Shown: piece after piece, positions 1,072 to 64,000 of the stretch | How the letters are laid out: each line of letters begins with the position of its first letter | Position numbering within the stretch: the first letter of the stretch is position 1 | Source: a virus | Virus record (IMG/VR): IMGVR_UViG_3300007735_000784 | Coordinates: 7,238-71,237 of that record | Reading direction: 5' to 3' (one strand) | Length of the DNA: 64,000 bases | Notes under the pieces: generated by a model | Told to the model about the DNA's origin: nothing | Seen by the model: only the letters and a program-made list of their open reading frames with translations | The model's database searches: none | Position numbers and translations under genes: made by a program

Positions 1072-2740
1072 ATACAGAATACTATCATTAGGGGACATCC
1101 CTGATAGCAAAGGAGGACTATATAATCCTGGTGTTTTAAAAGAATGTAATAATCGTATATTCATAGTAAGACATGAACAAGATTATAAATTCACAAACGA
1201 TGTACAGACAACGCTATTTTTAGGCAACAAAGAAGATTTAAAGCAGGGTAAATATGAGAGTTATCATGTTTTAAGAAAAAAAGGATTTCCTGAGCAATGC
1301 CGAATAGAAGATTATAGACTATTTACATACCAAGATGAGGTATATGCTAGTCATACAATGGTTGTTACCCCAAGAGGATGGAAAGAAGCCTCTGTTATAA
1401 AGCCGGTAATATCAAAAATCAACCTAAAGGATAATATTATAGAGTATTTTGACTTTATGGACCTTCCTGTGAAGATGAACCGGTTTGAAAAGAATTGGCT
1501 ATTGTGGGAGTGGAATGGTGAATTATACTGTATCTATAATATAGATCCTTTAGTAATATTTAAACTAGAAGGTTTTTCTTGGAGAATATTAAAGAATGAG
1601 GAAAATGGCATAGGTCATTATATTAAAACGCAACTTCCAGGTGCAGGTTATATTTCATTATCTGCAATAACCCAATTAAATGAAACGCAAATGTTGGCGT
1701 TTTGGCATACTATCCACGAAGGATTATATAAGCAGGGAATGTTTGTATTAGATATGCCAACACTAGACATAGTTAATCTAACCGAGCCTGTATTGCAGGG
1801 AGGAGATTTACAGGGATATAAGCCAAACTGCCTATATGTATCAGGATTAGTAATTGATAATGATAAGCTAGAAATTTGGGCAGGGGAAGCGGATGCCCAT
1901 ACCTGCATGATTGAAATGGATTTAACAGAGGTAAAAGACTTATTGGCCAAATACCCATTCCATAAAATCACCCCAACTAAATTCTTATTTAGGGACTTTG
2001 GATTAGGAGATTATATTTGTATGTCCTACGCATTACAAGGCTACGTAAATAAGTATCCGTATAAGAAGGTGAAGTTATATGTAGAAAAGCATTTTGAACT
2101 TTCCTCGGCCCTAAGAATGAAGGGAGTGCAAATACACCTATGGAACGGAGAGAAGGCAGATGTTGATTTAACATCTAACTTGGACGATAAGGAATACAAG
2201 GAGAAGCTAAAAGGCTCGTTTAAGGAATGGTATAAGGAGAAGATTGAAAAGTTCACAGGAGAAGAAGCTAACTTTAGCGTTCCAAATACAGACCACATAA
2301 AAGCCAATGACAAGTACGAAGGATATATCATAGTAGCTCCTTATGCAGCATGGGAAGATAGAACCTGGAGTATAAAGTATTGGACTTTATTAACAGAGAT
2401 ACTAACCCTAATGGGAGAAAAGGTATTGATTATAGACCCACATACAAACCGATGCGCACATTTAAAAGGAGAATTGCACTGTGAGAGATCAATCATTGAT
2501 GACTTTAGAGCAATTAAGGCAGCCAAATGTGTTATCAGTAATGAAAGTGGAATAGCTCATGCAGCAGGCTTATTAGGAACGCCAACTTTAGTGATATGCG
2601 GTGCATTGACCAAAGACGGAGATCCAAGGCCAGAGAAGATTTACGACCTCACTAAAAACGAGTGGATATACAAAAAGAAACTACAGGAAGTAACAGTAGA
2701 TGACGTTATTGATAAACTTAAACAAATGGAGATTTTATGA
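1058..2740 (+). CDS. Fusion of beta-propeller glycoside hydrolase-like domain and GT9 (heptosyltransferase-like) glycosyltransferase
   Basis: N-half YNPG, IEDYRLF, EKNW (GH130/GH43-like propeller); C-half GLGDYI, APYAAWEDRTW, ISNESGIAHAAGLLGTPTLVICG (GT9 signature). Confidence 0.65.
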   Translation: MKALKYRILSLGDIPDSKGGLYNPGVLKECNNRIFIVRHEQDYKFTNDVQTTLFLGNKEDLKQGKYESYHVLRKKGFPEQCRIEDYRLFTYQDEVYASHTMVVTPRGWKEASVIKPVISKINLKDNIIEYFDFMDLPVKMNRFEKNWLLWEWNGELYCIYNIDPLVIFKLEGFSWRILKNEENGIGHYIKTQLPGAGYISLSAITQLNETQMLAFWHTIHEGLYKQGMFVLDMPTLDIVNLTEPVLQGGDLQGYKPNCLYVSGLVIDNDKLEIWAGEADAHTCMIEMDLTEVKDLLAKYPFHKITPTKFLFRDFGLGDYICMSYALQGYVNKYPYKKVKLYVEKHFELSSALRMKGVQIHLWNGEKADVDLTSNLDDKEYKEKLKGSFKEWYKEKIEKFTGEEANFSVPNTDHIKANDKYEGYIIVAPYAAWEDRTWSIKYWTLLTEILTLMGEKVLIIDPHTNRCAHLKGELHCERSIIDDFRAIKAAKCVISNESGIAHAAGLLGTPTLVICGALTKDGDPRPEKIYDLTKNEWIYKKKLQEVTVDDVIDKLKQMEIL

Positions 2741-3345
2741 GAAGTTATGATGAAATAAAGAAGCAAGTAATGAGTAAAGGATATACATGGTTTTCAAAGC
2801 CACTATCCCTTAACTTTATCTGGGAGAGAACAAGCTATAAAGCTACAAATATTTTTGATGATTGGCTCCATGTATGTTATTTAGATGATAAGGGAGATAA
2901 GAAAGTAGTATCCCTTCATGCTACTACAAAGCCAGGATTAAAAGGATCATTGTTAGAACCGGTAATTGTAGAAGGAATAAGAGGAACCGCTATTATCGAA
3001 GCAGGACAATACCGAGAAGCATGGCAATTTAGGGATACCGATAAGGAGTTTTCAAAATGCCCATATTTTAGGCAGATTGGGAAACTTAACTATTATAGGG
3101 ACGGAAATAAGGATAGGATAATTGACAAGGTAAATAGGCAGGTAGCTAAGTTATTTGGCACCCATTGGCATAGAATGAGTAATAACAATACGTATGGATC
3201 TGGGCAGGTTAATAATTGGTCGCTAGGATGTCTTGGAGTTCCGCATCCTGAGTGGGTATTATTATTCCCTATAGTGAGAGAATCGGTTGAAAGATATGGT
3301 GATAAATTTACAGGAACGATTATAGATGATTTTCCCCAAGCGTAA
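2737..3345 (+). CDS. Putative endolysin / L,D-transpeptidase-like cell-wall enzyme
   Basis: ATTKPG, YRDGNKD, GTHWHR and NWSLGC (His...Cys) motifs typical of Bacteroidota-phage lysins. Confidence 0.55.
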   Translation: MRSYDEIKKQVMSKGYTWFSKPLSLNFIWERTSYKATNIFDDWLHVCYLDDKGDKKVVSLHATTKPGLKGSLLEPVIVEGIRGTAIIEAGQYREAWQFRDTDKEFSKCPYFRQIGKLNYYRDGNKDRIIDKVNRQVAKLFGTHWHRMSNNNTYGSGQVNNWSLGCLGVPHPEWVLLFPIVRESVERYGDKFTGTIIDDFPQA

Positions 3346-4270: not shown

Positions 4271-4659
4271 ATTATCAGGATTATAAGATATTGATAGATA
4301 ACCTTAATAAAGGTAGTAAAAACGCCAAAGTTAGCGTTCCAGCTACAAAAGGAGGAGATAAGGCTAAAACTCAAATGGAGTTTGTGATAAAATCAATGTT
4401 TCCTGATTATGTAACTGAGTTTAAATTCTTGGACAATAGGAAGTTTAAATTTGACTTTTACATCCCATCAGCAAGAACAGGAATAGAATACGATGGAATG
4501 TTCTCAGCTAAGAGCCGGCACCTAACAGTAACGGGATTTAGCAAAGACTGTGAAAAAACAAACCTAGCCCAATTAAACGGGTATAAGGTATTACGATATA
4601 CACAATTAACATATAGTGATTTGCAAAAAGATTTAGAATTATTAAAAAGTAAATTATGA
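4267..4659 (+). CDS. PD-(D/E)xK endonuclease (DUF559/Vsr-like)
   Basis: EFKF..RKFKFDF, GIEYDG, H, D.EK.N.AQL.GYKVLR. Confidence 0.7.
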   Translation: MNYQDYKILIDNLNKGSKNAKVSVPATKGGDKAKTQMEFVIKSMFPDYVTEFKFLDNRKFKFDFYIPSARTGIEYDGMFSAKSRHLTVTGFSKDCEKTNLAQLNGYKVLRYTQLTYSDLQKDLELLKSKL

Positions 4660-7231: not shown

Positions 7232-7241
7232 ACACGAATAT

Positions 7242-7973: not shown

Positions 7974-7975
7974 GC

Positions 7976-9196
7976 ATGAGCATATACAAGAAACTAGCTG
8001 AGATTCGCAAGGCGTTACCTCAGTTCACCAAGGATCAGCAGATTAATGGTGTTAAATTTATCGGAGATGAGCAGCTAAAAAATGCGCTTTTGCCGCTATT
8101 AAATGAGCATAGGGTATTGGTTATACCCCATGCCTCAGCAGATAGAGATACCTTTGATTTAACGCTAGAATTTGTTGACTTGGATTCGGGAGATAAGATA
8201 CAATCAAATATGGTATTCCCTATACATGAAAGGGACTATCAATTTGGGGGTACCATCACATTAACTTACAAATATATCCTGTTAATATTATTTAACGTTA
8301 ATACTGGTGAGGAAAATAGCCTACATAAGGCGATTAATGGGTATAAAGCTCTTGAAACGCCAAAGTTATGTGATATTGTAAAGCAGGAAATAAAGGACAA
8401 AACACCTGATTATGACCTTAGTTATGATTCTATAAAGGCATTAGAGGATGAAAAGCCCACAATAAAGGAAAGTCCAGATTTTCAATTAAAAGAAGAACCT
8501 AAAGTTAGCGTTTCAGAAAATACCTTCGGAGCATTATTCACAGAGGAGAAAGAGATCCCTACATTGCCATCCATACTAGAAACAGTAGAGGAAGATAATA
8601 TAGAGATACCGGAAGTAGAAATCCCAGAAACAGCAGCCGCACCTATCATTAAGCCTAATTCAAGCAATCTTGATGTTAAATATCAAGCCCTAGAGAATAG
8701 AATCTTTGATGATCCAATTTTAAACGACCTACCATGCCATCCCAAGTACATATTTGAGATGCAGAAGGGAAAGAGAAGGACAAATAAGACCTATAGGGAG
8801 CTAATAATAGCGTTTCTAACAGGAGGAGAGCCAGAATTTAGAGCCATGCTCATCCAGAAGTACCAATTAACACCGGAGGACGTAATAGACTATGCAAATA
8901 GGACAATCGCCACTAGAGAGTTAATACCAGAGGTGTTACAGAACAATAAGAAAGGTGTTGAAATAGACATCCCAAATAAAACCCCAAGAGAAACATCACA
9001 GTATTTTAAGATTGTGGAAGGGCTGCAACAATTAGAAATATCTGAAACGCAAATTTTAGATGCCATACATTTATTGCAGGATACCGGTAAAATGGAGGAT
9101 AAATATAGGTTTGAGAATAAAGTTCACGTACCTACATTTTTAGTAAATGCTACTAAATCTGAAATTTTATTGGTATTAAATGAAACAAAACGCTAA
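7976..9196 (+). CDS. ERF-family ssDNA annealing protein with long C-terminal extension
   Basis: MSIYKKLAEIRK start; GGTITLTYKYILLILFNVNTGEE resembles the ERF G-S-x-x-T-Y motif. Confidence 0.6.
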   Translation: MSIYKKLAEIRKALPQFTKDQQINGVKFIGDEQLKNALLPLLNEHRVLVIPHASADRDTFDLTLEFVDLDSGDKIQSNMVFPIHERDYQFGGTITLTYKYILLILFNVNTGEENSLHKAINGYKALETPKLCDIVKQEIKDKTPDYDLSYDSIKALEDEKPTIKESPDFQLKEEPKVSVSENTFGALFTEEKEIPTLPSILETVEEDNIEIPEVEIPETAAAPIIKPNSSNLDVKYQALENRIFDDPILNDLPCHPKYIFEMQKGKRRTNKTYRELIIAFLTGGEPEFRAMLIQKYQLTPEDVIDYANRTIATRELIPEVLQNNKKGVEIDIPNKTPRETSQYFKIVEGLQQLEISETQILDAIHLLQDTGKMEDKYRFENKVHVPTFLVNATKSEILLVLNETKR

Positions 9197-9237
9197 AGTT
9201 AGCGTTATAATTAGTGGTTATTAATAAGTGGTTATGA

Positions 9238-11251: not shown

Positions 11252-12827
<1,576 letters not shown>

Positions 12828-12844
12828 TTTAAAAAATCAATAAT

Positions 12845-13300
12845 ATGGCATCAGTACCTTTATTAGGAGCAACACCCAAGACAACCTATTGTACTTGGCT
12901 TCCAGCAACAACAGCAAATACTAAATCAGATGGTTCTGGAACTATAGGAACAGATATTTTACTTGCCTGTACAGCAGGTTCTAATGGAGCATGGATAGAC
13001 AGAATACGTCTTATGCCTGTAGGGACAACAGCAGCAACATCAACAGCAACAACAGCTACAGTAGCTAGAATATTTGTATCTACTCAAACATCTGGAGCTA
13101 CCACAAACCTAAATACTCACTCATGGCAAGAGATGTCGTGTCCTGCTCAAACAGTAAATCAAGCTACAGTATCTATTAGCCCAGTAGATGTTCCTGCCGG
13201 TTTTAGATTAGAAGCCGGAGAAAGTATTTTATTTTCTATGTATCATGTAGCAGCAGCTAATACAGCATGGGAATGTACAGTTTTTTCAACAGATTACTAA
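12845..13300 (+). CDS. Fibre-associated structural protein
   Basis: Thr/Ala-rich; TAGSNGAWIDRI, GFRLEAGESI. Confidence 0.45.
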   Translation: MASVPLLGATPKTTYCTWLPATTANTKSDGSGTIGTDILLACTAGSNGAWIDRIRLMPVGTTAATSTATTATVARIFVSTQTSGATTNLNTHSWQEMSCPAQTVNQATVSISPVDVPAGFRLEAGESILFSMYHVAAANTAWECTVFSTDY

Positions 13301-13310
13301 AATCTAGTCT

Positions 13311-14243
13311 ATGAGTTATATAGAAGGAGGAGAAAACGAATTATATAAGAATACTTGTAGAGTAAGCACTTTTAGACCGTTACAACAAAGGGGTTCAAGT
13401 ATTGAAAGATGGCAAACTTGGCAACCAACACCTCAAGAAACCATGGCCTATTTTTTATGTATAGGTGGTGGTGGTGGTGGTGGAGGAGGATTCTCAGGAC
13501 TTACACTAACAGCTAGAGGTGGAGGAGGTGGTGGAGGTTCCGCAGGTCAAACAAGAGGATTAATACCTTTAATGTTCTTACCTAAAATATTATATATCTC
13601 AGTAGCAGTAGGTGGTGCAGGAGGAACCGCAGGAGTAAGTGGTGGAACTGCAAGTAGAAGTTATATATCTGTAGCTCCTAATAGCACTGCGGGAAATCGT
13701 GTTATGTCATCTGCTGGATCTTCTAATGGAGCTACTGGTGGAGCTGCTGGTACAGCCGCAGGTGCATCTGCTGGTGGTAATGGAGAAGCAGCAGGTGCTT
13801 TCACTGACCAGATGGTAGGTCAATGGGGAATATTTCAGTTTTTAGCAGGTAAGAATGGAGCTGCGGCTGGTGCTTTAGGATTAGCAGGAGGATCCAATAC
13901 ATTATATACTACAGGTTGTTCTAATGGAGGTAGTGGTGGTGGAAGCACTACAGCACTTAATGTTGCAGGAGCAGGAGGTGCCCAAACTGGAGTTGGTATT
14001 TGGGATAGCATACCAGGAGGTGCTGTAGCAGGACCAATAGATGGATCTACAGGATATAATACTAGATTTGAAATGATACTTCCTTATGGGGGAAGCGGAG
14101 GAGCATCAGGAACAACAGGAATAGGAGGTAATGGTGGTGATGGAGGATTCCCAGGTGGAGGTGGCGGAGGAGGTGGAGGAGGAACTACAGGAGGAGCTGG
14201 TGGTAATGGAGGTGATGGAATAGTAATGATTATATCATGGTAA
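13311..14243 (+). CDS. Glycine-rich tail-fibre/receptor-binding protein, paralog 1
   Basis: IGGGGGGG, GGGGGGSAG, GGNGGDGIVMIISW. Confidence 0.7.
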   Translation: MSYIEGGENELYKNTCRVSTFRPLQQRGSSIERWQTWQPTPQETMAYFLCIGGGGGGGGGFSGLTLTARGGGGGGGSAGQTRGLIPLMFLPKILYISVAVGGAGGTAGVSGGTASRSYISVAPNSTAGNRVMSSAGSSNGATGGAAGTAAGASAGGNGEAAGAFTDQMVGQWGIFQFLAGKNGAAAGALGLAGGSNTLYTTGCSNGGSGGGSTTALNVAGAGGAQTGVGIWDSIPGGAVAGPIDGSTGYNTRFEMILPYGGSGGASGTTGIGGNGGDGGFPGGGGGGGGGGTTGGAGGNGGDGIVMIISW

Positions 14244-14258
14244 TTAAAATTTTAAGTT

Positions 14259-15194
14259 ATGTATATTGAACCAGGAGATAACAGTCTTAATAGAACTAGA
14301 AATAGAGTAAGTATGTTTACTACTATGGGAGGTGCTGTAGGTACTTCATGGCAAACATGGCAACCTAATCCAGATGAAACTATGGCTTACATTATATGTG
14401 TAGGAGGAGGAGGTTCTGGAGCAGGCGGCTTCTCCGGTCTAGCAGGTTCTATCCGTGGTGGTGGAGGTGGTGGAGGTGCAGCAGGACAGACTAGATGTAT
14501 AATCCCTTTAATGTTTTTACCTAAGATTCTTTATATTTCACCCGGAGCAGGAGGAGCATCAGTAGCCGCTTCTACAAATGGTAATCCTGGAACTTTATCT
14601 TATGTATGTGTTGCACCTAATACTACAGCAGCTAATGTTATTGTTCAATCTGGAGCCGCAAGAGCTTCTAACACAGTAGCAACAGCAGGATCAGGAACAA
14701 CAGCAGGAGCAGGTGGTACAGCAGAAACTATTAGCACTGTATTATTATGTGTAGTGGGACAGTGGGGACTATTACAGTTTCTTGCCGGTAAAGCAGGAGC
14801 AGCCGCAGGAGCCGTTACGGGAGCCGCAGGAGGATCTAATACATTATATACAGCAGGTTGTTCTAATGGTGGAGCTGGTGGAGCTAGTACTCCAGCAGCT
14901 AATACTAACTTTGCAGGAGGTGCCCAAACAGGTGCAGGTATATGGCCTACTATGCCAGGTGGTACAGCAGGAGGTAATCCTGGATCAGGGGCTACGGGTT
15001 ATAATAATATGTTTGAAATGATTTTGCCTTATGGAGGTACAGGTGGTGGTACTGGAGGTACAGCACTTACTGTAGCAGGAAATGGTGGTGATGGAGGCTT
15101 TCCTGGTGGTGGAGGTGGTGGCGGTGGTGGTGGTGTTACTGGAGGGAGAGGTGGTAAAGGTGGTGATGGTTGCGTATGGATAATCTCATGGTAA
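14259..15194 (+). CDS. Glycine-rich tail-fibre/receptor-binding protein, paralog 2
   Basis: Shares WQTWQP, IPLMFLPKILYIS, QFLAGK, FEMILPYGG and IISW with the upstream gene. Confidence 0.7.
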   Translation: MYIEPGDNSLNRTRNRVSMFTTMGGAVGTSWQTWQPNPDETMAYIICVGGGGSGAGGFSGLAGSIRGGGGGGGAAGQTRCIIPLMFLPKILYISPGAGGASVAASTNGNPGTLSYVCVAPNTTAANVIVQSGAARASNTVATAGSGTTAGAGGTAETISTVLLCVVGQWGLLQFLAGKAGAAAGAVTGAAGGSNTLYTAGCSNGGAGGASTPAANTNFAGGAQTGAGIWPTMPGGTAGGNPGSGATGYNNMFEMILPYGGTGGGTGGTALTVAGNGGDGGFPGGGGGGGGGGVTGGRGGKGGDGCVWIISW

Positions 15195-16888
15195 AATTTG
15201 ATGTAGTCCTCATAGCTAGAAACGAAGATAAAACACTTCCTCGTTTATTAAAATCACTTAATGAGTTTAAATCATTAGGTGGTAAAGTATATATATTAGA
15301 TACAGGTTCAAAAGATAATACAGTCCAAGTGGCTAAACAATGGGGATGCCACGTAGAAGAAGTAGGTGATAAGTTTAGAATCACAATTAATAAAGAACTT
15401 GCCAACCAAATAAATGCGTTTACAGGAACACAAATAGTAAAAGACGGTGATAGTGTATTTGACTACGCATCTGCCCGTAACTACATAGCTAACTTCGCTA
15501 CCCATGACATGATAGCCACTCCTGATTGTGATGAAATATGGACAAAATTTAATATAGATAAGATAAATCAAGCCGTAGAACAAGCCGATCAATTAGAATA
15601 TAACTTCGTATTTGCTCACGACGAGAACGGCAAAGAACTCGTAAAATTCCTACACTCTAAATTCTACAACAGAAATAAAATGAAATGGGTAGGCATTATC
15701 CATGAAGTATTACAAGGAGAAGGTAAGCGATTATTCCTAGATGAGAGTATAATTAAACTCGAACATTGGCAAAATCCAGAAACAAATAGAAGCGGATACC
15801 TACCTGGACTTGCTATTGATTGTTATACAAACCAAGATAATGACAGGAACGCCCACTACTTTGGTAGAGAGTTAATGTATCATGGATATTTTGAAGCAGC
15901 TATAAAACAGTTAGAACGACATATAGCTATGGATAAGTGGCCTACTGAAAGATCACAAAGCATGATATTTATAGGGGACTGTTTGCAATACATGAATAAA
16001 TTTGATGCGTCATGGTATTTAAAAGCGTTTGATCTAGAACCAAACCGCAGGGAACCTCTAATGAAACTTGCTGAATATTACTATCAGCAGGGCAAAAAAG
16101 AGCAAACCAGAGCCTATGGTGAAGCCGCACTAACCATCCAAGGCAATAATTTCTACGCAAATTACCAACCTTATTATGAAGATCGGCCACATGAACTATT
16201 GTATTGGGCATGGGATGGCATAGATAAAGCAAAATCGGATTATCATTGGGATCAAGCATATAAGTTTAACCCACATAACACTAAAACATTATCAGGAGCC
16301 TCATATAGGTTTAATCTACCAAAAGTTAGTATTATAATACCACAGCTAGGTAGAGAAGAAGGATTAAAAAGATGCTTAGACTCTATAAAAAACCTTGACT
16401 ACCCAAACGCTTTAATAGAAACCATCGTTGTTGAGGGAGAAGAAACAGTGCCTATCAAGGTTCAAAAAGGACTAGAAAAGTCTACCGGAGAATATATATG
16501 TTATGCTGCCAACGACGTAGAATTTACACCAGATAGCCTTAAAATAGCTATCCAAGACTCTATTAAACTAAACAAAGGACTTGTTTCATTTACAAGTGGA
16601 TCACTATTGCCGGACAATGGCAATATTTGTGAGCACTTTATAATTAAGCGAGAACTTATTGATAAGCTAGAAGCTAGACAAATATTCTCTACCGACTTTA
16701 ATCACGTAGGAGTAGATAATTGGCTATGGGCACAGGCTACTAAGTTAGATACATCATATAGATCAACAGCGTTTATACACCACTACCACTTCTCAAAAGG
16801 AGCTGAATTAGATAATGTTTATAAAAGGGGATGGGATAAAGTAATGAGAGATAGAGAAATTTTACAAAATAAATTAAGTAAATTATAA
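15188..16888 (+). CDS. GT2 glycosyltransferase with TPR repeats and a second C-terminal GT2 domain
   Basis: Likely ATG 15188 (MVKFDVVLIARNE), LDTGSKD, ARN, DCDE, IHE, TPR-like helices, then PKVSIIIP...ANDVEF. Confidence 0.8.
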   Translation: MVKFDVVLIARNEDKTLPRLLKSLNEFKSLGGKVYILDTGSKDNTVQVAKQWGCHVEEVGDKFRITINKELANQINAFTGTQIVKDGDSVFDYASARNYIANFATHDMIATPDCDEIWTKFNIDKINQAVEQADQLEYNFVFAHDENGKELVKFLHSKFYNRNKMKWVGIIHEVLQGEGKRLFLDESIIKLEHWQNPETNRSGYLPGLAIDCYTNQDNDRNAHYFGRELMYHGYFEAAIKQLERHIAMDKWPTERSQSMIFIGDCLQYMNKFDASWYLKAFDLEPNRREPLMKLAEYYYQQGKKEQTRAYGEAALTIQGNNFYANYQPYYEDRPHELLYWAWDGIDKAKSDYHWDQAYKFNPHNTKTLSGASYRFNLPKVSIIIPQLGREEGLKRCLDSIKNLDYPNALIETIVVEGEETVPIKVQKGLEKSTGEYICYAANDVEFTPDSLKIAIQDSIKLNKGLVSFTSGSLLPDNGNICEHFIIKRELIDKLEARQIFSTDFNHVGVDNWLWAQATKLDTSYRSTAFIHHYHFSKGAELDNVYKRGWDKVMRDREILQNKLSKL

Positions 16889-16895
16889 TATTTCT

Positions 16896-16903
16896 TATAT
16901 TTG
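16896..16903 (+). promoter_or_regulatory. Bacteroidota -7 promoter element
   Basis: TATATTTG upstream of ATG 16919. Confidence 0.5.
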
Positions 16904-16918
16904 ACAAACTATTTATCT

Positions 16919-17119
16919 ATGTGGAAGCGATATTTAAGCCCAACGCCTGCTAATGTAGCAAGAATAATGCTAATAATCAAAGGTGGATTAGCGATATTTA
17001 TAGGATCAGAGATAGCAACTCACGATTATCGGATGGCAACTTATGGTGCCATAGTAGGTTTTATACTACAGGAGCTTGCTAATTTCCTAACTGAGAAACC
17101 TAAAGACGATGCTAATTAA
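16919..17119 (+). CDS. Putative holin (two TM helices)
   Basis: MWKRYLSPTP start, two hydrophobic segments, charged C-terminus; start moved to ATG 16919. Confidence 0.5.
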   Translation: MWKRYLSPTPANVARIMLIIKGGLAIFIGSEIATHDYRMATYGAIVGFILQELANFLTEKPKDDAN

Positions 17120-17246
17120 TGTATTAATAATAGCTATAGTTGGCGTTTCTACAATCATAACCCTTATATTATATAAGACAAGAGATAGAAAGTTTAATCA
17201 AAAGCATAGGAAGAATACCATTAAAGACCGAAGATATGATAAGTAA
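17109..17246 (+). CDS. Small single-TM membrane protein (45 aa)
   Basis: MLINVLIIAIVGVSTIITLILYKTRDRK..., overlaps both neighbours; below the ORF-track cutoff. Confidence 0.45.
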   Translation: MLINVLIIAIVGVSTIITLILYKTRDRKFNQKHRKNTIKDRRYDK

Positions 17247-17762: not shown

Positions 17763-17771
17763 GTTTATTTT

Positions 17772-18481: not shown

Positions 18482-18541
18482 AGTGTCTAATTTTGTACAA
18501 ATATAGTGCAATTATATGAAACGCCAAAGTTAGCGTTGTAA

Positions 18542-19675: not shown

Positions 19676-19785
19676 AACTATTAAGGTATAAAATTGATAT
19701 TATTAATAGAGTGAATGTTATTATAAGCCAAACAAGGCCGCTAAAATTATGCTTTTTAATCATTGGTTAGAATGCTTTTTGAAAA

Positions 19786-20589: not shown

Positions 20590-20613
20590 ATTAATTAAAG
20601 TTTGCGTTTTATA

Positions 20614-24032: not shown

Positions 24033-24228
24033 AACGCAAACTTTAGATAAGATGAGAGATTTAGATTTAGCAGCTTCTCCCCCATTGGGAAAGAGAAAGA
24101 GTAGTGATTGGCACAGAGGAGTAAAAGTGCTAATGCTATATTGGGAAAAGATGAGAGAGTATAGAGAGATAGAAGATAGATTTAATAGCAACGCCAAAGT
24201 TAGCGTTTCCGCACATGGTTCCAGATAA
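24025..24228 (+). CDS. Hypothetical protein
   Basis: Probable ATG 24025 (MVKTQTLDK...). Confidence 0.4.
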   Translation: MVKTQTLDKMRDLDLAASPPLGKRKSSDWHRGVKVLMLYWEKMREYREIEDRFNSNAKVSVSAHGSR

Positions 24229-25002: not shown

Positions 25003-25007
25003 ACCGC

Positions 25008-25133
25008 TAACGTTTTGCGTGTATAAGAAGTGGCGGAATTAAAGCATAAAATTAACTTGAAAGCAATGCAGTTGAATATAACACTAATGTTTCTAAATGG
25101 CACAAAACCCGCCATTTTTTATACACGCTGTTA
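25008..25133 (+). repeat. Hairpin element E1
   Basis: TAAC GTTTT GCGTGTATAAGAAGTGGCGG ... CCGCCATTTTTTATACACGC T GTTA. Confidence 0.85.
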
Positions 25134-25163
25134 TGTGTATGTGGCGGTTTAAATAACGAAAAT

Positions 25164-25412
25164 ATGAAGATAAAAGCAATTTACATTAAGAACTTAAAAA
25201 TGAGTGAAGGCAAAGTTGCTGCACAAGTGGCACACGCTGTTAAGAATTTAGGAATAACGCCAACTGATTGTGATATAATAGTTTTAGGTGTTTCAACCAC
25301 TAAGTTTAATGAATTAACAGCACAGCACGAATGTTACATTCAACGAGATAAAGGATTAACAGAAGTAGAAAGTGGTACAGCAACAGCAGCGGCTTGGATA
25401 GATGTTCCGTAG
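25164..25412 (+). CDS. Minimal peptidyl-tRNA hydrolase Pth2-like protein (cassette 1)
   Basis: LKMSEGKVAAQVAHA and I.RDKGLTEVE.GT.T match PTH2 family signatures. Confidence 0.7.
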   Translation: MKIKAIYIKNLKMSEGKVAAQVAHAVKNLGITPTDCDIIVLGVSTTKFNELTAQHECYIQRDKGLTEVESGTATAAAWIDVP

Positions 25413-25480
25413 CCATTACATGTAACGAACAAGTATTTTAGTAGTGCGATTAATAGCAGAAAGTAACAATGAAACAAGAA

Positions 25481-25564
25481 TAACGGGTTGCGGCTTTGCG
25501 AAGTTGCTTAAAACACATAATATGGAAAAATACAGATTGATACAATTTTGCAAAGCCGCTGTTA
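25481..25564 (+). repeat. Hairpin element E2
   Basis: TAAC GGGTT GCGGCTTTGCGAAGTTG ... CAATTTTGCAAAGCCGC T GTTA. Confidence 0.85.
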
Positions 25565-25677
25565 GCAGTAGGTTCGTACCTATTCGCTATTACTTAATAG
25601 AGTTTTTCTGTTGGGTAATTTGCGGAATTGATTTTTACAAAAATTATCAAAGGTTCTATAAACGAACTTACCGCTAA
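25522..25677 (+). CDS. Small hypothetical protein (cassette 2)
   Basis: ATG in E2 loop (MEKYRLIQFCKAAVSSRF...); stop is the TAA of the next TAAC. Confidence 0.45.
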   Translation: MEKYRLIQFCKAAVSSRFVPIRYYLIEFFCWVICGIDFYKNYQRFYKRTYR

Positions 25678-25801
25678 CGTTTTCGGGCTTTGTGTCCGTT
25701 GGCGAATTAAACCACAAATGTTAAATTAAAAACAAATATTGATTATGAGCAAAAAAGTTGAATTGAAAGACAAAACCGCCAATGGCACAAAAACCGTGTT
25801 A
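25675..25801 (+). repeat. Hairpin element E3
   Basis: TAAC GTTTT CGGGCTTTGTGTCCGTTGGCG ... CGCCAATGGCACAAAAACCG T GTTA. Confidence 0.85.
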
Positions 25802-26026
25802 GGCGTAGGTTTTTATCGCTGTGGCCACTGTGGGCAACCGACAGATAAAGATGGTGAGCCGTTGGATTTAGAAGCGTGTAAAACATGGCAAGCAGATAAA
25901 GCAGAGTTAGTGCATGGAAATTGTTGCGTGCATGAACTACGCCAACGGCAGACAATTATAGTAACGAGGGATATGGCTATTGATGCAGGAGATATGTCGC
26001 TGGAGGGTCAGGAGTGGGTTTGGTAA
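25745..26026 (+). CDS. Small Zn-finger-like protein (cassette 3)
   Basis: ATG in E3 loop; CGHCG...HGNCC, VTRDMAIDAGD..LEG. Confidence 0.6.
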   Translation: MSKKVELKDKTANGTKTVLGVGFYRCGHCGQPTDKDGEPLDLEACKTWQADKAELVHGNCCVHELRQRQTIIVTRDMAIDAGDMSLEGQEWVW

Positions 26027-26035
26027 ACTTACGCC

Positions 26036-26123
26036 TAACGTTTTGCGTATATGAGAAGTGGCACTTGTAGAATGTTGATGTTTAGCACAAATGTTTATGT
26101 GCAATTTCTTATATACGCTGTTA
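26036..26123 (+). repeat. Hairpin element E4
   Basis: TAAC GTTTT GCGTATATGAGAAGTGGCAC ... GTGCAATTTCTTATATACGC T GTTA. Confidence 0.85.
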
Positions 26124-26228
26124 TGTTCTCGTTGCGGTTTATTAACTAAAAACTTAAATCGAATCACAGAAGTAGTATTTATTTTTTTGTGCGGTGGCAA
26201 AAATTAATTTGAAAAATTAAAAAGAATT

Positions 26229-26987
26229 ATGAGTAAGAATATAGAATTAGACAAGTTTTATACACCAAAAGAAACGGCAAGACAATGTATTGAATTGTTT
26301 TTTGAAACATTTACTGATACGACTGAAATAATTGAACCAAGCGCAGGAAATGGTAATTTCAGTTTACAAATACCAAACTGTATTGCTTATGATTTAGAAC
26401 CCGAACACGAAAGTATAATAAGGCAAGATTTTCTTAAACTGGATTTACCTTACAAGAAAGGTAGAGCATTTATTGGAAACCCACCTTTCGGAGATAGAAA
26501 CAATCTTGCGAGAAGTTTTTACAAACACGCTTGTAAAATGGGTGATATGATTGGTTTTATACTCCCAATAAGCCAACTCGAAAATAGTGATAGTTTATAT
26601 CATTTTGACTTGATTAAAAGTGTTGATTTAGGTGTATTAGAATATAGTAATATGAAAGTACATTGCTGTTTCAATTTGTACAAAAGACCAAAGAATGGTA
26701 AACTAAATAGTAAGCCTAAATTAAGTAGTGAATTATTTACAATACATAGAGACGACCAAGATGGTTATAATGAACTTGATTATGATTTATGTATATTTAG
26801 GCGAGGTGCAAGTAGTGGTAAAGAAAAATTTACTGACTTACATACACAAACATATAAGATTGTTGTAAATGATAAAACCAATGTTGAGTATGTTAGAAAT
26901 ACTATATTGAAATTTGATTGGCAGAATTACAAGAAACACCAATCAGCACCAAGTATTAGTAAAAATGATATTTATAGACTTTTTTAA
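26229..26987 (+). CDS. DNA amino-methyltransferase, N6-adenine type (cassette 4)
   Basis: DKFYTP, IEPSAGNG (motif I) then GNPPFG (motif IV). Confidence 0.8.
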   Translation: MSKNIELDKFYTPKETARQCIELFFETFTDTTEIIEPSAGNGNFSLQIPNCIAYDLEPEHESIIRQDFLKLDLPYKKGRAFIGNPPFGDRNNLARSFYKHACKMGDMIGFILPISQLENSDSLYHFDLIKSVDLGVLEYSNMKVHCCFNLYKRPKNGKLNSKPKLSSELFTIHRDDQDGYNELDYDLCIFRRGASSGKEKFTDLHTQTYKIVVNDKTNVEYVRNTILKFDWQNYKKHQSAPSISKNDIYRLF

Positions 26988-27063
26988 AAAGCGAGGGAAG
27001 AAAAAATAAATACGGTATGATACCACAAAACTATAATCGAAGCACAATTGTAGCAATGGAGCA

Positions 27064-27152
27064 TAACGTATGGTGCTATGAGAAGGTTTGCCTTGCAGAA
27101 ATGTTCAAATTACCTAAAATGTTATTGGCAAACTTGCTTATAGCACGTGTTA
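27064..27152 (+). repeat. Hairpin element E5
   Basis: TAAC GTATG GTGCTATGAGAAGGTTTGCC ... GGCAAACTTGCTTATAGCAC GT GTTA. Confidence 0.85.
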
Positions 27153-27198
27153 CATGCAGTTTTTGTGCGTTGGATTAGTAAAAAATTAAAAGTAAAAT

Positions 27199-27804
27199 AT
27201 GAAGAAAGTATTGAATTTATTTGCAGGAATTGGGGGCAACAGAAAACATTGGAAAGATGTAGAAGTAACCGCAATAGAATACAATGAGGAAATTGCCAAT
27301 GTTTATAAGCAATTACATCCAAACGACAATGTTATCGTTGCTGATGCACACGAATATTTGACTAAACATTGGAGAGAGTTTGATTTTATATGGAGTAGCC
27401 CACCATGCCAAAGCCACAGCAAAGTTAGAATGATGGCAAGTAAAGGTGGAAGTTATGATGCTGTAATGCCTGATATGAGATTGTGGGCTGAAATAATCTT
27501 TTTGCAGAACTTTACAAAGAATACGGATATAAAGTTTGTGGTTGAAAATGTAAAACCATACTACGAACCATTTGTAAAACCAACAACAAAACTTGGTAGG
27601 CACTTATTTTGGGCAAACTTTGAAATACCACAAACTGAAATTAAAGACGGACTTACACACAATGAAAGAGGAAGTTCTGAAAAAGGTTATTTCGATTTGC
27701 GACCATATAAAATGGAACACAGGAAAGACCAGATTATTCGTAATTGCGTTGACCCCAATGTCGGAGATTACGTTCTTCGGTGTGCGTTGGGAAATTGCAC
27801 ATAA
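27199..27804 (+). CDS. C5-cytosine DNA methyltransferase, short form (cassette 5)
   Basis: LNLFAGIGG, SSPPCQSHS, VVENV, GRHLFW. Confidence 0.85.
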   Translation: MKKVLNLFAGIGGNRKHWKDVEVTAIEYNEEIANVYKQLHPNDNVIVADAHEYLTKHWREFDFIWSSPPCQSHSKVRMMASKGGSYDAVMPDMRLWAEIIFLQNFTKNTDIKFVVENVKPYYEPFVKPTTKLGRHLFWANFEIPQTEIKDGLTHNERGSSEKGYFDLRPYKMEHRKDQIIRNCVDPNVGDYVLRCALGNCT

Positions 27805-27861
27805 CGAACAGGGCTATACGCTCGGTTTGTTTTTCACAAACTGGCGTTATAGCCCATGTTA
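27802..27861 (+). repeat. Hairpin element E6 (minimal, 60 bp)
   Basis: TAAC GAACA GGGCTATACGCTCGGTTTGT TTTTC ACAAACTGGCGTTATAGCCC AT GTTA. Confidence 0.85.
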
Positions 27862-27921
27862 CCTGTCTGGTTTGTTTTTAATTTTTGTGGAAAGGAAGTC
27901 ACGCTTAAACGTATAATAGAT

Positions 27922-28272
27922 ATGAAAACTAACAAAGAAGAAAAAGAATACATAGAAAAATGCCTTGATGCCTACCAAAATGGAGGTGTGCTGTGGCTTA
28001 TTGAAAGGACTGATACAAATGAGTTCTGCTATAAAGAATTGAAGATGTGGCAAAGCAATAAGCCCGAAACGTGGAGAGATACATTATTGTGGTCAAAAGA
28101 CATTTCATTTTTCCATGTATTCTTTTTAACCAAAGAAGATGCTGAAAAGGAATTGCAAGAAAATATGTTTATGCAATTTACAGAAGGAGGTTGCCCTTGT
28201 TGTGGACACGGCTCAACTGAAATACCAATTGCAATTACTGAACACGAATTTGTGCGGATGGGGAAAAAATAA
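27922..28272 (+). CDS. Hypothetical protein (cassette 6)
   Basis: Probable ATG 27922 (MKTNKEEK); VLWLIER...CPCCG...ITEHEFV. Confidence 0.55.
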   Translation: MKTNKEEKEYIEKCLDAYQNGGVLWLIERTDTNEFCYKELKMWQSNKPETWRDTLLWSKDISFFHVFFLTKEDAEKELQENMFMQFTEGGCPCCGHGSTEIPIAITEHEFVRMGKK

Positions 28273-28287
28273 AAACAAACTTGCAGG

Positions 28288-28393
28288 TAACGGTTCGGGT
28301 ATTGCCGTTCGCTGTGTTCACAAATTAGATGCGTTCATGATTCGTGAACAGATGAAAATAATGAACAGCCACAATGACGGTAATACCATGTTA
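28288..28393 (+). repeat. Hairpin element E7
   Basis: TAAC GGTTCG GGTATTGCCGTT ... GACGGTAATACC AT GTTA. Confidence 0.75.
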
Positions 28394-28500
28394 TAAGATG
28401 GAGGTGGCGAGAAAAAAGGTTTGTAGTATCGGTTGGAAATCTGAAACCTTGAAATACCCATTAAGCTCGACAGTAGCCAACCATAGCCACCTCTTTCTTA

Positions 28501-28613
28501 TAACGTTGGGTATTGGCGTTGTTGCCTCACAAATGTTTAATTGAAATACTAAATTTAATATTATGAAAAAAGATAAATTGAAACACGAAAGCAATAACGC
28601 CAATGTGCTGTTA
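28501..28613 (+). repeat. Hairpin element E8
   Basis: TAAC GTTGG GTATTGGCGTTGTTGC ... GCAATAACGCCAATGTGC T GTTA. Confidence 0.85.
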
Positions 28614-28829
28614 TGTGCTGATAATTTTACGGGTTACTTCGATGATGCTAACAAACCAATTTTTGTTGGTGATAAATTGAAAAGCGAATGGAACTATGAA
28701 GTTATTGTTGTAAAAGACGAAGATGGTGATTACAGTGGAAAATTGGTTTGTGATAATAACCATAGTTGCAAAAACATTCCTTATGCTTTAAATAAAGGTA
28801 AAGGTTATAGTAAAATTATTTGCACATAA
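28563..28829 (+). CDS. YopX-like small protein (cassette 8)
   Basis: FTGYFDDANKPIFVGD resembles the YopX TG..D.NG..IYEGD motif; ATG in E8 loop, stop in the TAAC. Confidence 0.55.
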   Translation: MKKDKLKHESNNANVLLCADNFTGYFDDANKPIFVGDKLKSEWNYEVIVVKDEDGDYSGKLVCDNNHSCKNIPYALNKGKGYSKIICT

Positions 28830-28944
28830 CGTATGGGTATTGGCGAAGTTGCCGAACCGAAAGCTAAATTGAAAAACAAAAGTTGAAATTATGGACGAAA
28901 GTTTAATTGAAAAACAGAACGGCAATTTTGCCAATACCGTGTTA
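28827..28944 (+). repeat. Hairpin element E9
   Basis: TAAC GTATG GGTATTGGCGAAGTTGCCG ... CGGCAATTTTGCCAATACC GT GTTA. Confidence 0.85.
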
Positions 28945-29574: not shown

Positions 29575-29627
29575 CGGTGTCGGTGGCATTGCACCTAACT
29601 ACTGTATATAAGCAATAAAACTAAAGC

Positions 29628-29855
29628 ATGAAGATAACACTATCAAATATTTATGTACTAAAATGGCAGTTAAAAGACAACCCACAATACAAATGGACCT
29701 TATGCGGTAAATGTATTAACACTAAAACTGGTCGTGAAATAAAAAAGACTATTTGTGGAAGATCCATTGGATACTGCATTAAAGGCAAATTTGTATCAGC
29801 AAATACACTTAGGAAAGAATTAGAAACAATAAAAGAAATAGAATGTCCATTTTAA
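29628..29855 (+). CDS. Small basic protein, NUMOD4-like
   Basis: W.LKDNPQY.....GKCINTKTGREIK. Confidence 0.4.
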   Translation: MKITLSNIYVLKWQLKDNPQYKWTLCGKCINTKTGREIKKTICGRSIGYCIKGKFVSANTLRKELETIKEIECPF

Positions 29856-29865
29856 CTACAACAAT

Positions 29866-61899: not shown

Positions 61900-62384
61900 T
61901 GAAAAAAGCATTAATCAAAGAAGAAGTTTGTAACCTCCTAAACAAGGCATTAGGCAAGGAACTTTACGTTTCTAACCTATACAAACACGTTGCAAATCAG
62001 CTACAAACGCTAGGATATTTCGGAACTCAAAAATACTTCTTAGGTGAGAGTGCTGAGGAGTTAACCCATTATCAGAAGATAGTAGACTATCTAAATGATA
62101 TGGGAGATACGGCAAAGATGCCAGAAGTGCCGGCAATGACCGAGAAGATAGGAAGTATTGGAGATGCGCTAAAGTTGGCGTTTGACCAAGAGATAGCCCT
62201 TATGAACTTCTACGCTTCAATGTGTGATAAGGTAGACCACATAACATATCAATTCTTATTGCAGTTTATTGAGATACAGAGAACATCAGTAGGGCAGTAT
62301 GGAGATTTAATAGCCAGGTATGAAAAGTTGGCCGGAGATACTTGTGGATTTATAATCTTTGACCAAGAAATGAATGGCTTGTAA
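61899..62384 (+). CDS. ftn: Ferritin-like protein
   Basis: ELYVSNLY, GYFG...YF..ESAEELTH..KI.DYLND.G, FLLQFIEIQ ferroxidase-type pattern. Confidence 0.8.
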   Translation: MKKALIKEEVCNLLNKALGKELYVSNLYKHVANQLQTLGYFGTQKYFLGESAEELTHYQKIVDYLNDMGDTAKMPEVPAMTEKIGSIGDALKLAFDQEIALMNFYASMCDKVDHITYQFLLQFIEIQRTSVGQYGDLIARYEKLAGDTCGFIIFDQEMNGL

Positions 62385-64000
62385 ATACTACGTTAACGGA
62401 AAGTGGATAACAGAGGTAGAATTTAAGGCACATCTTTTAGGTGGGGCCTTAGAAAACGCTATTAATAGTGGCGTTGAGATAGAAGGGTATCCTAAAATGG
62501 AAGCTAAAGATAGCGTTTCAGATGAGGACTACCCAGAATCAGTACTATCTGATGAAGAAGAACTATCAGAAGAAGAAAGAGTACAAAAGGAACGGGATAT
62601 GTTTGGTGAATATATCCAACAGGAAGCCCCACAAGAATTTACAGAAGATGAATTAGACCAGATAACATCCTCCTATTATATGGATGATGAAGGCGTTGTT
62701 CGTGATTATGACGGGGATGAAACAACAATCGAAGCAGTAGTTGAAAAGGCCAAGGAGTTAAAGCAAGGAACAATATTTGAAACAGGTGATGGTAAATATC
62801 GGTTTGTTAGAGAAGGAGAAGATATTGTAATGAAAGATGCCCAAGGTAGAACAATTACAGCTCCTAAATATAAAACCATTAAGGGTAAAAAGATTAAAAT
62901 AGAGCCTTCAACTAACGTTGCATATATAGATCAACGCTTAATTAATAAATATAATCAGGAAAGACTAGGCGAAGGATTAGAAGAAGGTCAAAGTATTCAA
63001 GCCAACCCTGCAAATCCAGAGGATAGGTTAATAATAGCCGAAGATTCTACAAACCCTCAGCAAATAAAAGAAGCCTGGGAGCAAGAAAAAATGTCATTAA
63101 GGGATGAGGTAGATCAAAATGATAAAATATATGATGCGGTAGCCACTTATGGCGTTAGAGCAAAGGACTTTCAAAGATATGGTGATAATAAATTAGTTAA
63201 AGATGGTTCTGTTTCAGCGTTAGGGTGGTTTTCATCCCAAGCATTACCGATGGATATAATGGCTCAGCAAATAGGAGTTGAAATAGAAGATATAATTTCA
63301 TTTATTAAAAAATATAACAAGGGGCCTAATCAATATAAGGCTGAACGTGAATATACTCTAAAAGCATTAGCTGATAAATATAAGCAGGTAACAGGCGTTG
63401 ATATTAAGACTAAAGTTAAGCCGGTGGCTAAACCCGAAGCTAAAGTTAGCGTTTCAAAAGAGGAACCAATAACAGCCGAAGAAGTAAAGAAGGAAATAGA
63501 AGAAGAAAAGATAGTAGATGATGCAATAGCCAAAAAGAAAAAAGAAATAGCTGATAGGTTAAAAAACGCATTAAAGAGTAAACCTAGAACTATTAAATGG
63601 ATTGATGAGAATGGAAATGAAATAGAATCTCCAATAACAAAGCTAGGAATAGGGTTGAATGAGTGGAACGACTTAGTTGATGTATTTGCAGAAGCATTTG
63701 CAAGTGCAGTAGTAAAAGGGCAAAAATATAAAATAGCATTAAAGGCCACCCTTGAATATTTAAGAGATTTAGATTCATTTAAGGCATTAGGGGAATCTGA
63801 ACGTGAGGCTATTGAGCAGGATTTAAAGCAATTCCTAAAAGAAAATAGTGGCGTTAAATTTAAGAAAGTAGAGAAGAAGCCTGGAGTTAGCCAAGCTAGA
63901 ACCAAGATAGCATCAGCCGAAGAAGGCGTTTCAGAAGAAGTTAAAAGTAAATTCTCCTTAACTTATCTCAGGGATAGCATTAAAAATATGACCCAATCAG
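62374..64000 (+). CDS. Large protein, N-terminal part, runs off the window (not in ORF track)
   Basis: ATG 62374 MACKYYVNGKWITEVEFK..., no stop seen before the window end. Confidence 0.7.
   Translation, partial: MACKYYVNGKWITEVEFKAHLLGGALENAINSGVEIEGYPKMEAKDSVSDEDYPESVLSDEEELSEEERVQKERDMFGEYIQQEAPQEFTEDELDQITSSYYMDDEGVVRDYDGDETTIEAVVEKAKELKQGTIFETGDGKYRFVREGEDIVMKDAQGRTITAPKYKTIKGKKIKIEPSTNVAYIDQRLINKYNQERLGEGLEEGQSIQANPANPEDRLIIAEDSTNPQQIKEAWEQEKMSLRDEVDQNDKIYDAVATYGVRAKDFQRYGDNKLVKDGSVSALGWFSSQALPMDIMAQQIGVEIEDIISFIKKYNKGPNQYKAEREYTLKALADKYKQVTGVDIKTKVKPVAKPEAKVSVSKEEPITAEEVKKEIEEEKIVDDAIAKKKKEIADRLKNALKSKPRTIKWIDENGNEIESPITKLGIGLNEWNDLVDVFAEAFASAVVKGQKYKIALKATLEYLRDLDSFKALGESEREAIEQDLKQFLKENSGVKFKKVEKKPGVSQARTKIASAEEGVSEEVKSKFSLTYLRDSIKNMTQS

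Follow-up and report, generated by a model that had tools for sequence, protein, structure and literature searches.

Two mycobacteriophage systems come closest to the subject of this study. The report on Cluster O phages (Cresawn et al. 2015, PMC4351075) describes a 17-bp dyad-symmetric repeat with invariant arms of 7 bp, of which Corndog carries 34 copies, about one third of them clearly intragenic; a dimeric binder is predicted and the function is left unknown. Dispersed intragenic binding words in phages are thus already described. The stoperators of Cluster A mycobacteriophages (PMC9283540) are asymmetric sites in temperate phages at which a monomeric repressor halts elongation, and they are oriented with transcription according to PMC4351075. 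Here we analyze a word dispersed through a 64,000-nucleotide stretch of DNA (the window) that comprises bases 7238-71237 of the 71,237-bp virus record IMGVR_UViG_3300007735_000784, from a freshwater phage. We put at about 0.75 the probability that this word, an imperfect palindrome, is a protein docking site kept at the DNA level by selection or drive.

Results

Copy number and consensus of the word

The ends of the record share a 127-bp repeat. Because an open reading frame (ORF) of 1742 amino acids crosses these ends (window 62374-64000, onward into L009:1-3729), we handled the genome as a 71,110-bp circle and take the terminal repeat to reflect a circular assembly or a permuted genome and no gene boundary.

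The first-pass annotation of the window had described an identical 18-mer, AACGCCAAAGTTAGCGTT, at 4321, 18520, 24190 and 32213. All four copies are exact and on the + strand, compared with an expectation of 0.00 from 100 dinucleotide shuffles. The same annotation placed two further full copies at 1683 and 9188; both are real, but they start at 1684 and 9189 and have three mismatches and one mismatch, respectively. The flanks of these six copies are unalike, indicating that the 18-mers are not pieces of a longer repeat. The shorter AAAGTTRGCGTT occurs in 15+5 copies versus 0+0 for the reversed control. With at most one mismatch the count is 32+15 (0.4+0.3 in 20 dinucleotide shuffles) and with at most two it is 65+43 (7.6+4.8 in the same shuffles).

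We defined motif copies by an iterated 22-nt matrix with a score of at least 12 bits on the circular genome. This gives 110 sites (66 on the + and 44 on the - strand), 104 of which fall in the window; 105 remain at 14 bits and 89 at 16 bits. The many partial copies noted at first are thereby confirmed, and all 11 positions named as examples are among the matrix sites, but the initial figure of about 70 was too low. The consensus is a-[A/C]-[G/A]-C-T-A-A-a-g-T-T-[G/A/T]-G-C-G-T-T-T-[C/T]-a, an imperfect 16-18-bp palindrome centred on AG, with aCGCTAAA on the left of the dyad and GTTAGCGT on the right. The right half, TTnGCGTTT, is nearly invariant and the left half, aGCTAA, is degenerate. Eight places score on both strands and are referred to as overlapping double sites.

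The enrichment exceeds what codon usage and gene content provide, as the first-pass annotation had predicted. Synonymous-codon shuffles within each gene gave 25.9 sites (n=200, sd 3.0, maximum 34) and codon-order shuffles gave 17.4 (n=200, sd 1.5, maximum 22), the latter close to the 15 intergenic sites; intergenic DNA was kept unshuffled in both null models. The pentamer GCGTT is present in 200 copies versus about 90 expected.

The coordinate listed below for each site in the window marks the initial A of AAAGTT; relative to it, and read in its own orientation, the copy covers -5..+16.

Plus strand (61 sites): 305, 1690, 2270, 3677, 4327, 4965, 5513, 7109, 7589, 8501, 8803, 9195, 9733, 10847, 11200, 12180, 17136, 17789, 18128, 18526, 18837, 19229, 19423, 19633, 20210, 20597, 21932, 22390, 24196, 24796, 30228, 31661, 32219, 33052, 33836, 36379, 38509, 39187, 39514, 41198, 44467, 45736, 46387, 48187, 48828, 49746, 50151, 50531, 53518, 53777, 54774, 56747, 58522, 59137, 59865, 60825, 61218, 61519, 62171, 62506, 63442
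Minus strand (43 sites): 307, 1221, 1695, 2275, 2589, 4332, 5421, 5786, 6847, 7819, 8367, 9057, 9200, 11117, 17949, 18531, 19062, 23421, 23816, 24044, 24201, 24594, 24962, 30101, 30280, 30819, 31324, 31848, 32224, 32870, 33531, 35250, 37402, 38991, 40403, 41169, 45122, 49021, 51360, 54500, 59207, 60692, 62466

Individual copies referred to in the text are as follows.

1684..1701, +: three-mismatch palindromic copy AACGCAAATGTTGGCGTT, in ORF 1058-2740
4321..4338, +: exact 18-mer, double site in the endonuclease ORF 4267-4659, encoding NAKVSV
9189..9206, +: one-mismatch 18-mer AACGCTAAAGTTAGCGTT, double site at the 3' end of the Erf-like gene 7976-9196
18520..18537, +: exact 18-mer, lying between genes; double site about 9 nt ahead of the start of the minus-strand ORF 18263-18511
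20592..20613, +: intergenic copy whose coding (minus) strand, AAAACGCAAACTTTAATTAAT, abuts the ATG of ORF 20392-20589
24190..24207, +: exact 18-mer, double site ending 8 nt before the ATG of ORF 24215-24736
32213..32230, +: exact 18-mer, double site in the C-terminal tail of the primase-helicase 30512-32311, encoding NAKVSV
35229..35255, -: copy in the large terminase TerL (site coordinate 35250), encoding IETPTLE

The layout of AAAACGCAAACTTTAATTAAT also precedes ORFs 21330-21905, 23434-23823, 23823-24032 and 30108-30512. On their bottom strand the four exact 18-mers, inspected by eye, contain TAACTTTG, which we take to be the host-type -7 box; only the copy at 18520 faces a gene, and we treated this match as coincidence.

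Placement, reading frames and coding cost

By our ORF calls, 95 of the 110 copies (86%) are intragenic, 52 sense and 43 antisense, and 15 are intergenic. Sense copies are found in frame 0 (n=36; AAA GTT NGC GTT TCA, read as K-V-S/G-V-S) and in frame 2 (n=15; L-K-L-A-F), and antisense copies mainly in one frame (n=25; E-T-P/Q/L-T-L). Judging from the consensus, these frame preferences and the modest excess on the + strand would arise because the word contains stops (TAA in sense; TGA and TAG in antisense), and the sense excess because the word leaves two frames open in sense against one in antisense. A peptide NAKVSV(P/S) had been noted in three proteins, and it is indeed encoded in ORF 4267-4659, ORF 23920-24228 and the tail of the primase-helicase 30512-32311. 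We rejected a cause at the level of such peptides (NAKVSV or KLAF) in the window, since the word is read in several frames and on both strands.

Orientation of the 94 non-palindromic sites shows no polarity along the genome (P 0.91 in a runs test and 0.14 for the best two-arc split), which leaves the KOPS analogy drawn at first unsupported. The mean spacing is 697 bp with a coefficient of variation (CV) of 1.19, or 0.86 without the four gaps longer than 2.5 kb. These values rule out a regular lattice; spacing is random-like and there is no localized cluster or array of the motif in the window. Density peaks in the early block (window 17-25 kb), and late structural genes also carry copies. Seven early genes have the word at most 30 nt before their start, all reading GAAACGC..AAnnTT toward the gene, compared with one in the other orientation.

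The word is costly to the coding sequence that holds it. Rare codons are concentrated in motif cores, which make up 1.1% of codons: the share located there is 16% for GCG, 15% for ACG and 26% for CGC. At the TerL copy the coding strand reads ATT GAA ACG CCA ACT TTA GAA (IETPTLE). The prevailing residues in 23 homologues are IDDPTPE, and none of them shares the Leu. This alignment of 24 sequences has no indel at the motif site, which argues that the copies are overwritten sequence and not inserted elements. Inserted palindromic elements (REP, MITE or Rickettsia palindromic elements) were accordingly discarded, given the lack of a TerL indel and the unrelated flanks of the 18-mers. Overall, the loss of the signal in both codon shuffles, its presence on both strands and in several frames, the altered TerL residues and the conserved GCGTT core described below all support a signal at the DNA level.

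Conservation in relatives and absence from recently transferred modules

A search with TerL alone found no close relative in IMG/VR, and relatives were obtained via alignment. Five whole relatives (G402-G406; TerL 28-47% identical) contain TTDGCGTTT 0-6 times each, compared with 60 times in this genome. Scans with the 18-mer matched 8 viral and 75 metagenome loci, mostly singletons, and the metagenome scan yielded five contig pieces with 70-92% nucleotide identity to this phage that carry the word; the informative relatives among the 18-mer matches are L189, L194, L239, L241 and L250. A 15-mer scan of IMG/VR gave, among the matches listed, single matches only, at about the rate predicted by composition.

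Comparison with related phages, the check called for in the first-pass annotation, showed that the core is conserved. When 22 orthologous sites that align without gaps are compared, 100 of the 110 GCGTT positions are identical, versus a fraction of 0.82 in the flanks; three weak sites are lost outright. In the piece with 76% identity the loose positions and the flanks have changed, whereas six of seven orthologous sites retain an intact GCGTTT (about 3.6e-4 by our binomial estimate, taking 0.764 as the identity per base). The site at 18520 is 100% conserved in L250. When contigs of four runs were compared (40 of 973 differences covered), none of the 38 differences listed for window 7001-9200 fell in positions -2..13 of its 8 sites; about 2 were expected and the deficit is not significant.

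The word is not enriched in the sampled bacteria of the likely host class. In 401 sampled Bacteroidia genomes, to which G181 (unpublished) contributed only its count, the 13-mer is found 0-7 times each, the level of the reversed control, although the host may lie outside this sample. The analogies to uptake sequences and Chi drawn in the first-pass annotation lose their footing here.

Four stretches lack the word, two of which can be explained and are listed here.

12181..17130: motif-free gap over fibre (collagen-like, glycine-rich) and glycosyltransferase genes
25003..30100: motif-free gap over a small-gene cassette with three DNA methyltransferases

The fibre/glycosyltransferase module has 1 site versus 8.6 expected (P 0.0017) and the methyltransferase cassette has none versus 7.9 expected (P 0.0004), as the reported scarcity of the word in the fibre genes and the cassette array had implied. 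The proteins encoded in 11553-16888 and 17520-17762 share 82-98% identity with their G402 counterparts, compared with only about 30-47% for core proteins (47% for TerL), indicating that the fibre/glycosyltransferase module moved recently and bearing out the idea that motif-poor segments are recent imports. To judge from these identities, it is a recently exchanged host-recognition module. Since the transferred modules are nearly empty, the word builds up in DNA that resides in the lineage.

Other features of these segments were observed along the way. Contigs of the four runs have many joints and loose ends within 11.6-12.8 kb and 13.9-15.1 kb, which suggests that the collagen-like and glycine-rich repeats vary in length in nature. 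Within the cassette (window 25000-30100), similar non-coding stretches (..ACATAACG..GGGTATTGGCG..) precede the starts at 27856, 28563 and 28891, and perhaps those at 25444 and 25739, suggesting a repeated inter-cassette element. The relative G404 (L157-L160; 36% TerL identity) has a dispersed word of its own, (G)CCACAG. Its CCACAG is present in 96+46 copies versus 18+11 in synonymous shuffles, and 72% of the GCCACAG copies are on one strand with no wider consensus seen. Genome-wide words may be a recurring trait of this phage group.

Arrays of the word in packaging modules of unrelated phages

Two unrelated contigs, L181 (=L255) and L200, have 4-6 copies of the word within about 100 bp. The arrays lie in genes of a zinc-ribbon family, for which protein search found 19 further members and an IMG/VR scan 17 loci.

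L181:207-545; L200:598-939 (minus strand); L257-L273: array-bearing zinc-ribbon genes

The product starts MxCxxCxxEFxxxRxTAKYCSxKCRKLAF, with a zinc ribbon of the FCS type at its N terminus, and VSVP repeats follow. The array consists of 3-6 units of the nine-letter TTAGCGTTC, one reading frame giving KLAF and another the VSVP repeats. KLAF is encoded by AAG TTA GCG TTC in 17 of 17 viral loci across GC contents of 34-47%, and SVP-type repeats are nearly always nTT AGC GTT CCn, with few variants (ACC GTT CCT, AGC GTA, AGT). Because the same nine letters are used in two frames with near-fixed codons, the array is a DNA-level rather than a peptide repeat; a peptide-level cause was considered for this family as well and is ruled out by the near-invariant codons. 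The consensus of 56 units from 13 distinct zinc-ribbon genes is aAAGTTAGCGTTCCa, and some units are the full palindrome AACGCTAAAGTTAGCGTTCC (NAKVSVP), matching the 18-mers of the window.

These arrays are located in the packaging module. A TerL-type gene is found no more than about 1.5 kb from the array gene in nine of nine annotated viral loci and also in L181; at L262 the only match of the adjoining large ORF was to a function-unknown family, with the portal next. Among the six upstream neighbours scanned, those of L269 (E 1.5e-17) and, weakly, L258 (E 9.5e-5) match small terminases of the helix-turn-helix type, giving the gene order terS, zinc-ribbon gene with array, terL. With two of six upstream neighbours matching small-terminase families, we dropped the idea that the zinc-ribbon protein is itself the small terminase. 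The TerL families differ among the array loci. Five array genomes of 40-45 kb (four rated complete) contain the 9-mer 3-5 times, all at the array except for one G410 copy about 1.1 kb off. The zinc-ribbon gene and its array look like a self-contained cis-site-plus-gene module. Our literature search found no paper joining a zinc ribbon with a small terminase, and we claim nothing beyond the reach of that search. The occurrence of the word both as a dispersed genomic motif and as a localized packaging-module array in other phages is new here.

Gene content of the phage

Genes were named by a PHROGs scan of 84 ORFs and a Pfam scan of 77 ORFs, which also identified glycosyltransferases.

4267-4659: small endonuclease (PHROG/Pfam)
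5575-6573: RecE/YqaJ-like exonuclease (PHROG/Pfam)
7976-9196: Erf-like annealing protein (PHROG/Pfam)
11553-15194: collagen-like and glycine-rich fibre genes (PHROG/Pfam)
17520-21905, -: early-gene block
26229-29574: matches to three DNA methyltransferases, inside the small-gene cassette at about 25-30 kb
30512-32311: primase-helicase (PHROG/Pfam)
33285-33950, +: ORF abutting TerL, in the small-terminase position
33947-36361, +: large terminase TerL (PHROG/Pfam)
38662-41019: portal (PHROG/Pfam)

No DNA polymerase, integrase or ParB was seen in these scans. Cellulophaga and Flavobacterium are the hosts of the named phages whose TerL comes closest (25% identity), and near-identical DNA is present in runs labelled lake, sediment, wastewater and estuary metagenomes. 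Many middle and late gene starts have TAnnTTTG boxes (e.g. TTAATATATTTG) 20-25 nt upstream, which presumably represent the Bacteroidota promoter type and fit a Bacteroidota host.

4908, 9304, 33285, 36437, 37847, 41081, 43702, 54075, 57214: starts with TAnnTTTG 20-30 nt upstream

The minus-strand early genes 19844-20134, 20614-21231 and 21330-21905 share a leader, AATTAATAACCACTAAA(T/A)TAA..(A/G)CC, that abuts the ATG; it is a second conserved element of the early region, distinct from the motif. A gene immediately preceding the packaging genes (window 32507-33259) encodes a 250-aa protein with an N-terminal GroES/Cpn10-like domain (Pfam E 1.2e-8), and four of the five relatives conserve it. 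Between two giant ORFs of the virion module lies a gene for a ferritin/Dps-like protein (window 61899-62384, Pfam Ferritin E 1.5e-17), an unusual position.

Discussion

A proposed docking site acting on the whole chromosome

The reader of the word would be a sequence-specific DNA-binding protein, probably a dimer, a form that fits the imperfect dyad symmetry. Its approximately 110 sites would have been written by substitution, through codon choice and some amino-acid changes, and not by insertion; they would accumulate with time in the lineage and be maintained by selection. Because orientation and spacing look random and 86% of the copies are intragenic, the reader probably acts on the whole chromosome rather than on single promoters. 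Tentatively, with a probability near 0.4, we link this whole-chromosome role to packaging and DNA handling, because copies are numerous, are placed and oriented at random, are not enriched in the sampled genomes of the likely host class, and carry the word of the packaging arrays. The sites would tag phage DNA for the packaging or DNA-handling machinery, by recognition or loading for encapsidation or condensation, and would tell phage DNA from host DNA. We infer the binding protein, its identity and the packaging connection; for the last, the terS-terL modules of unrelated phages provide an indirect lead, in that nearly the same word is the only repeated cis-array there.

Several observations weigh against a docking site for packaging. 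In known phages a single packaging site per genome suffices, so that 110 copies call for some additional explanation. Regular-expression, tblastn and hidden Markov model searches found no array-gene zinc ribbon in this phage (G402-G406 likewise lack one), and BLASTP (E 1e-4) found no protein common to this phage and the array loci within 6 kb on either side. Its two helix-turn-helix candidates are absent from five array phages, and the motif-less relatives share the gene in the small-terminase position (33285-33950). The words themselves differ slightly, with GCGTTTC here versus GCGTTCC in the arrays and G, A or T at position 6 here versus only A there, and the arrays could be regulatory rather than packaging sites. 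Finally, the word is densest in the early block and perfect double sites precede putative regulator genes, which suits a transcription factor at least as well.

The reader in this phage would be a host factor, a protein supplied by another phage, or a protein of almost identical specificity that is either unrelated by descent or strongly diverged. Three candidates are encoded in the window.

17772-18278, -: NinG/Rap-like endonuclease, overlapping the end of ORF 18263-18511
18263-18511, -: small helix-turn-helix protein, XRE-like by eye, with a double site about 9 nt before its own start
24215-24736, +: basic protein of 173 aa that belongs to no known family, located behind a double site

ORF 18263-18511 has no Pfam or PHROG match, and a protein atlas search with ORF 24215-24736 gave no lead (best score 0.82). 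The N-terminal CxxCxxxFxxxRx5CSxxC of ORF 17772-18278 has the spacing of the array-gene zinc ribbon, but the hhalign match to that family is weak (E 0.0045 over 24 columns, probability 7.7%). All three ORFs are absent from the motif-less relatives; most early genes are likewise, so this carries little weight.

In a more specific version of the packaging proposal, which we consider improbable, the word would be the signal of the zinc-ribbon packaging-module protein of the ~40-kb phages, amplified about 100-fold in this unrelated 71-kb phage, which does not have the gene. As self-tags the copies would mark every stretch of its own DNA for encapsidation, and as decoys they would capture or titrate the packaging proteins of rival phages in the same host.

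Alternative explanations

The alternative that survives best, although we think it unlikely, is that the copies are genome-wide operators of a dimeric helix-turn-helix transcription factor such as ORF 18263-18511. In this stoperator-like arrangement intragenic copies would act as elongation roadblocks and copies before early starts as operators. Consistent with such a regulator, perfect double sites are located 8-10 nt before the starts of ORFs 18263-18511 and 24215-24736, the early block has the highest density, and the words before the seven early genes share one orientation. Phages with tens of dispersed regulator-type sites are also known from stoperators and the Cluster O repeats (PMC9283540, PMC4351075). 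Against a regulator, 95 copies are intragenic, late structural genes included, and are nearly as often antisense as sense, and the TAnnTTTG promoters before middle and late genes are mostly clear of sites. Silencing would be without obvious use in a phage with no integrase or other sign of lysogeny among its annotated genes, and the same word in the terS-terL module of unrelated phages is left unexplained.

We give little credence to the sites being targets of a phage nicking or cutting enzyme, either the NinG/Rap-like HNH-type ORF 17772-18278 or the endonuclease ORF 4267-4659, on the model of T5-like localized nicks or recombination-dependent replication. Besides these two endonuclease-like proteins the phage encodes an Erf-like annealing protein and an exonuclease of the RecE type, the zinc ribbon of the NinG-like protein has the Cys/Phe/Arg spacing of the array-gene family, and PHROG profiles connect the ribbon of that family with HNH endonucleases. 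On the other hand, sites on both strands, including the 8 overlapping double sites, would lead to double-strand breaks, the zinc-ribbon likeness is weak, and the endonuclease 4267-4659 is also encoded by motif-less relatives (37-57% identity).

Equally doubtful is molecular drive without service to the phage, whereby biased repair, gene conversion or packaging favours the word and copies pile up in the manner of uptake sequences in competent bacteria. Drive would explain why copies grow with residence time and recent imports are empty, as well as placement that looks random (CV 0.86 without gaps), and the separate word of G404 suggests a recurring process in the phage group. Yet drive still requires a sequence-specific reader and is hence a variant of the docking-site proposal, and the TerL amino-acid changes and core conservation fit both alike.

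Least probable is a signal read by the host (uptake-like, Chi-like, a nucleoid-protein site, or a decoy or shield against host defence): a shared host factor would explain the same word in unrelated phages with no recognizable common protein in the DNA examined, but the sampled Bacteroidia genomes are unenriched (at most 7 copies, like the control, with a host possibly outside the sample), the word shows no strand polarity and, at 17-18 bp, it is far longer than known Chi sites.

Implications

If the packaging or self-tagging role holds, the phage would tell its own DNA from that of its host by sequence alone, which would bear on transduction, phage-phage competition and the synthetic recoding of phage genomes. 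If the decoy or tag version were true, it would amount to genome-wide cis-site mimicry between phages. The word in the packaging-module arrays of unrelated phages points to a concrete process to examine. The cost of the word is visible in rare codons and altered conserved residues, and it can serve as a transfer 'clock', being missing from recent modules, shared at 70-92% identity and not shared with relatives of at most 47% TerL identity.

Comparison with known systems

Stoperators lie mostly between genes. Like them, the word is present genome-wide in many copies of what is here a putative protein-binding site, but it follows no orientation rule (52 sense versus 43 antisense) and is mostly intragenic. 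The temperate trait was not found either, there being no integrase or ParAB match in the scanned ORFs (84 with PHROGs, 77 with Pfam), although a repressor is possible. A parS-like role, another analogy of the first-pass annotation, gains no support from the 77 ORFs, among which there is no ParB/KorB-type Pfam match at E <=0.01; divergent forms are possible.

DNA uptake sequences of Pasteurellaceae and Neisseriaceae are a feature of bacterial genomes tied to competence. The word resembles them in having about one copy per kb on both strands, frame preferences within genes and some inverted pairs, in being poor in recently acquired DNA and in a plausible drive-like accumulation. It differs in belonging to a phage lineage, with the 401 genomes of the likely host class unenriched.

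Sites that act in cis can lie inside the genes of their machinery, as do pac within small-terminase genes and the lambda ori iterons within gene O. The arrays of the unrelated phages are similar, with 3-6 units inside a packaging-module coding region that the protein tolerates as a linker (KLAF, VSVP repeats). Such localized repeats in or beside terminase genes are found in L181, L200 and L257-L273, one array per genome, whereas the window has about 100 dispersed single or double sites and no array.

The closest likeness is to the Cluster O repeat. Both are a single dyad word of about 17 bp, dispersed over a lytic-looking phage genome of similar size, partly intragenic and placed without a tie to the direction of transcription. 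The tens of dispersed dyad copies of Cluster O have their counterpart in 110 copies of an imperfect dyad, about three times more. Invariant arms, with many copies between genes or next to gene starts, are not found here, where the left arm is degenerate, one half is strong, 8 places are double sites and 95 of 110 copies are intragenic. What further sets the present word apart from the Cluster O repeat is that it changes amino acids, that recent imports are empty of it and that it is linked to the packaging-module arrays of unrelated phages.

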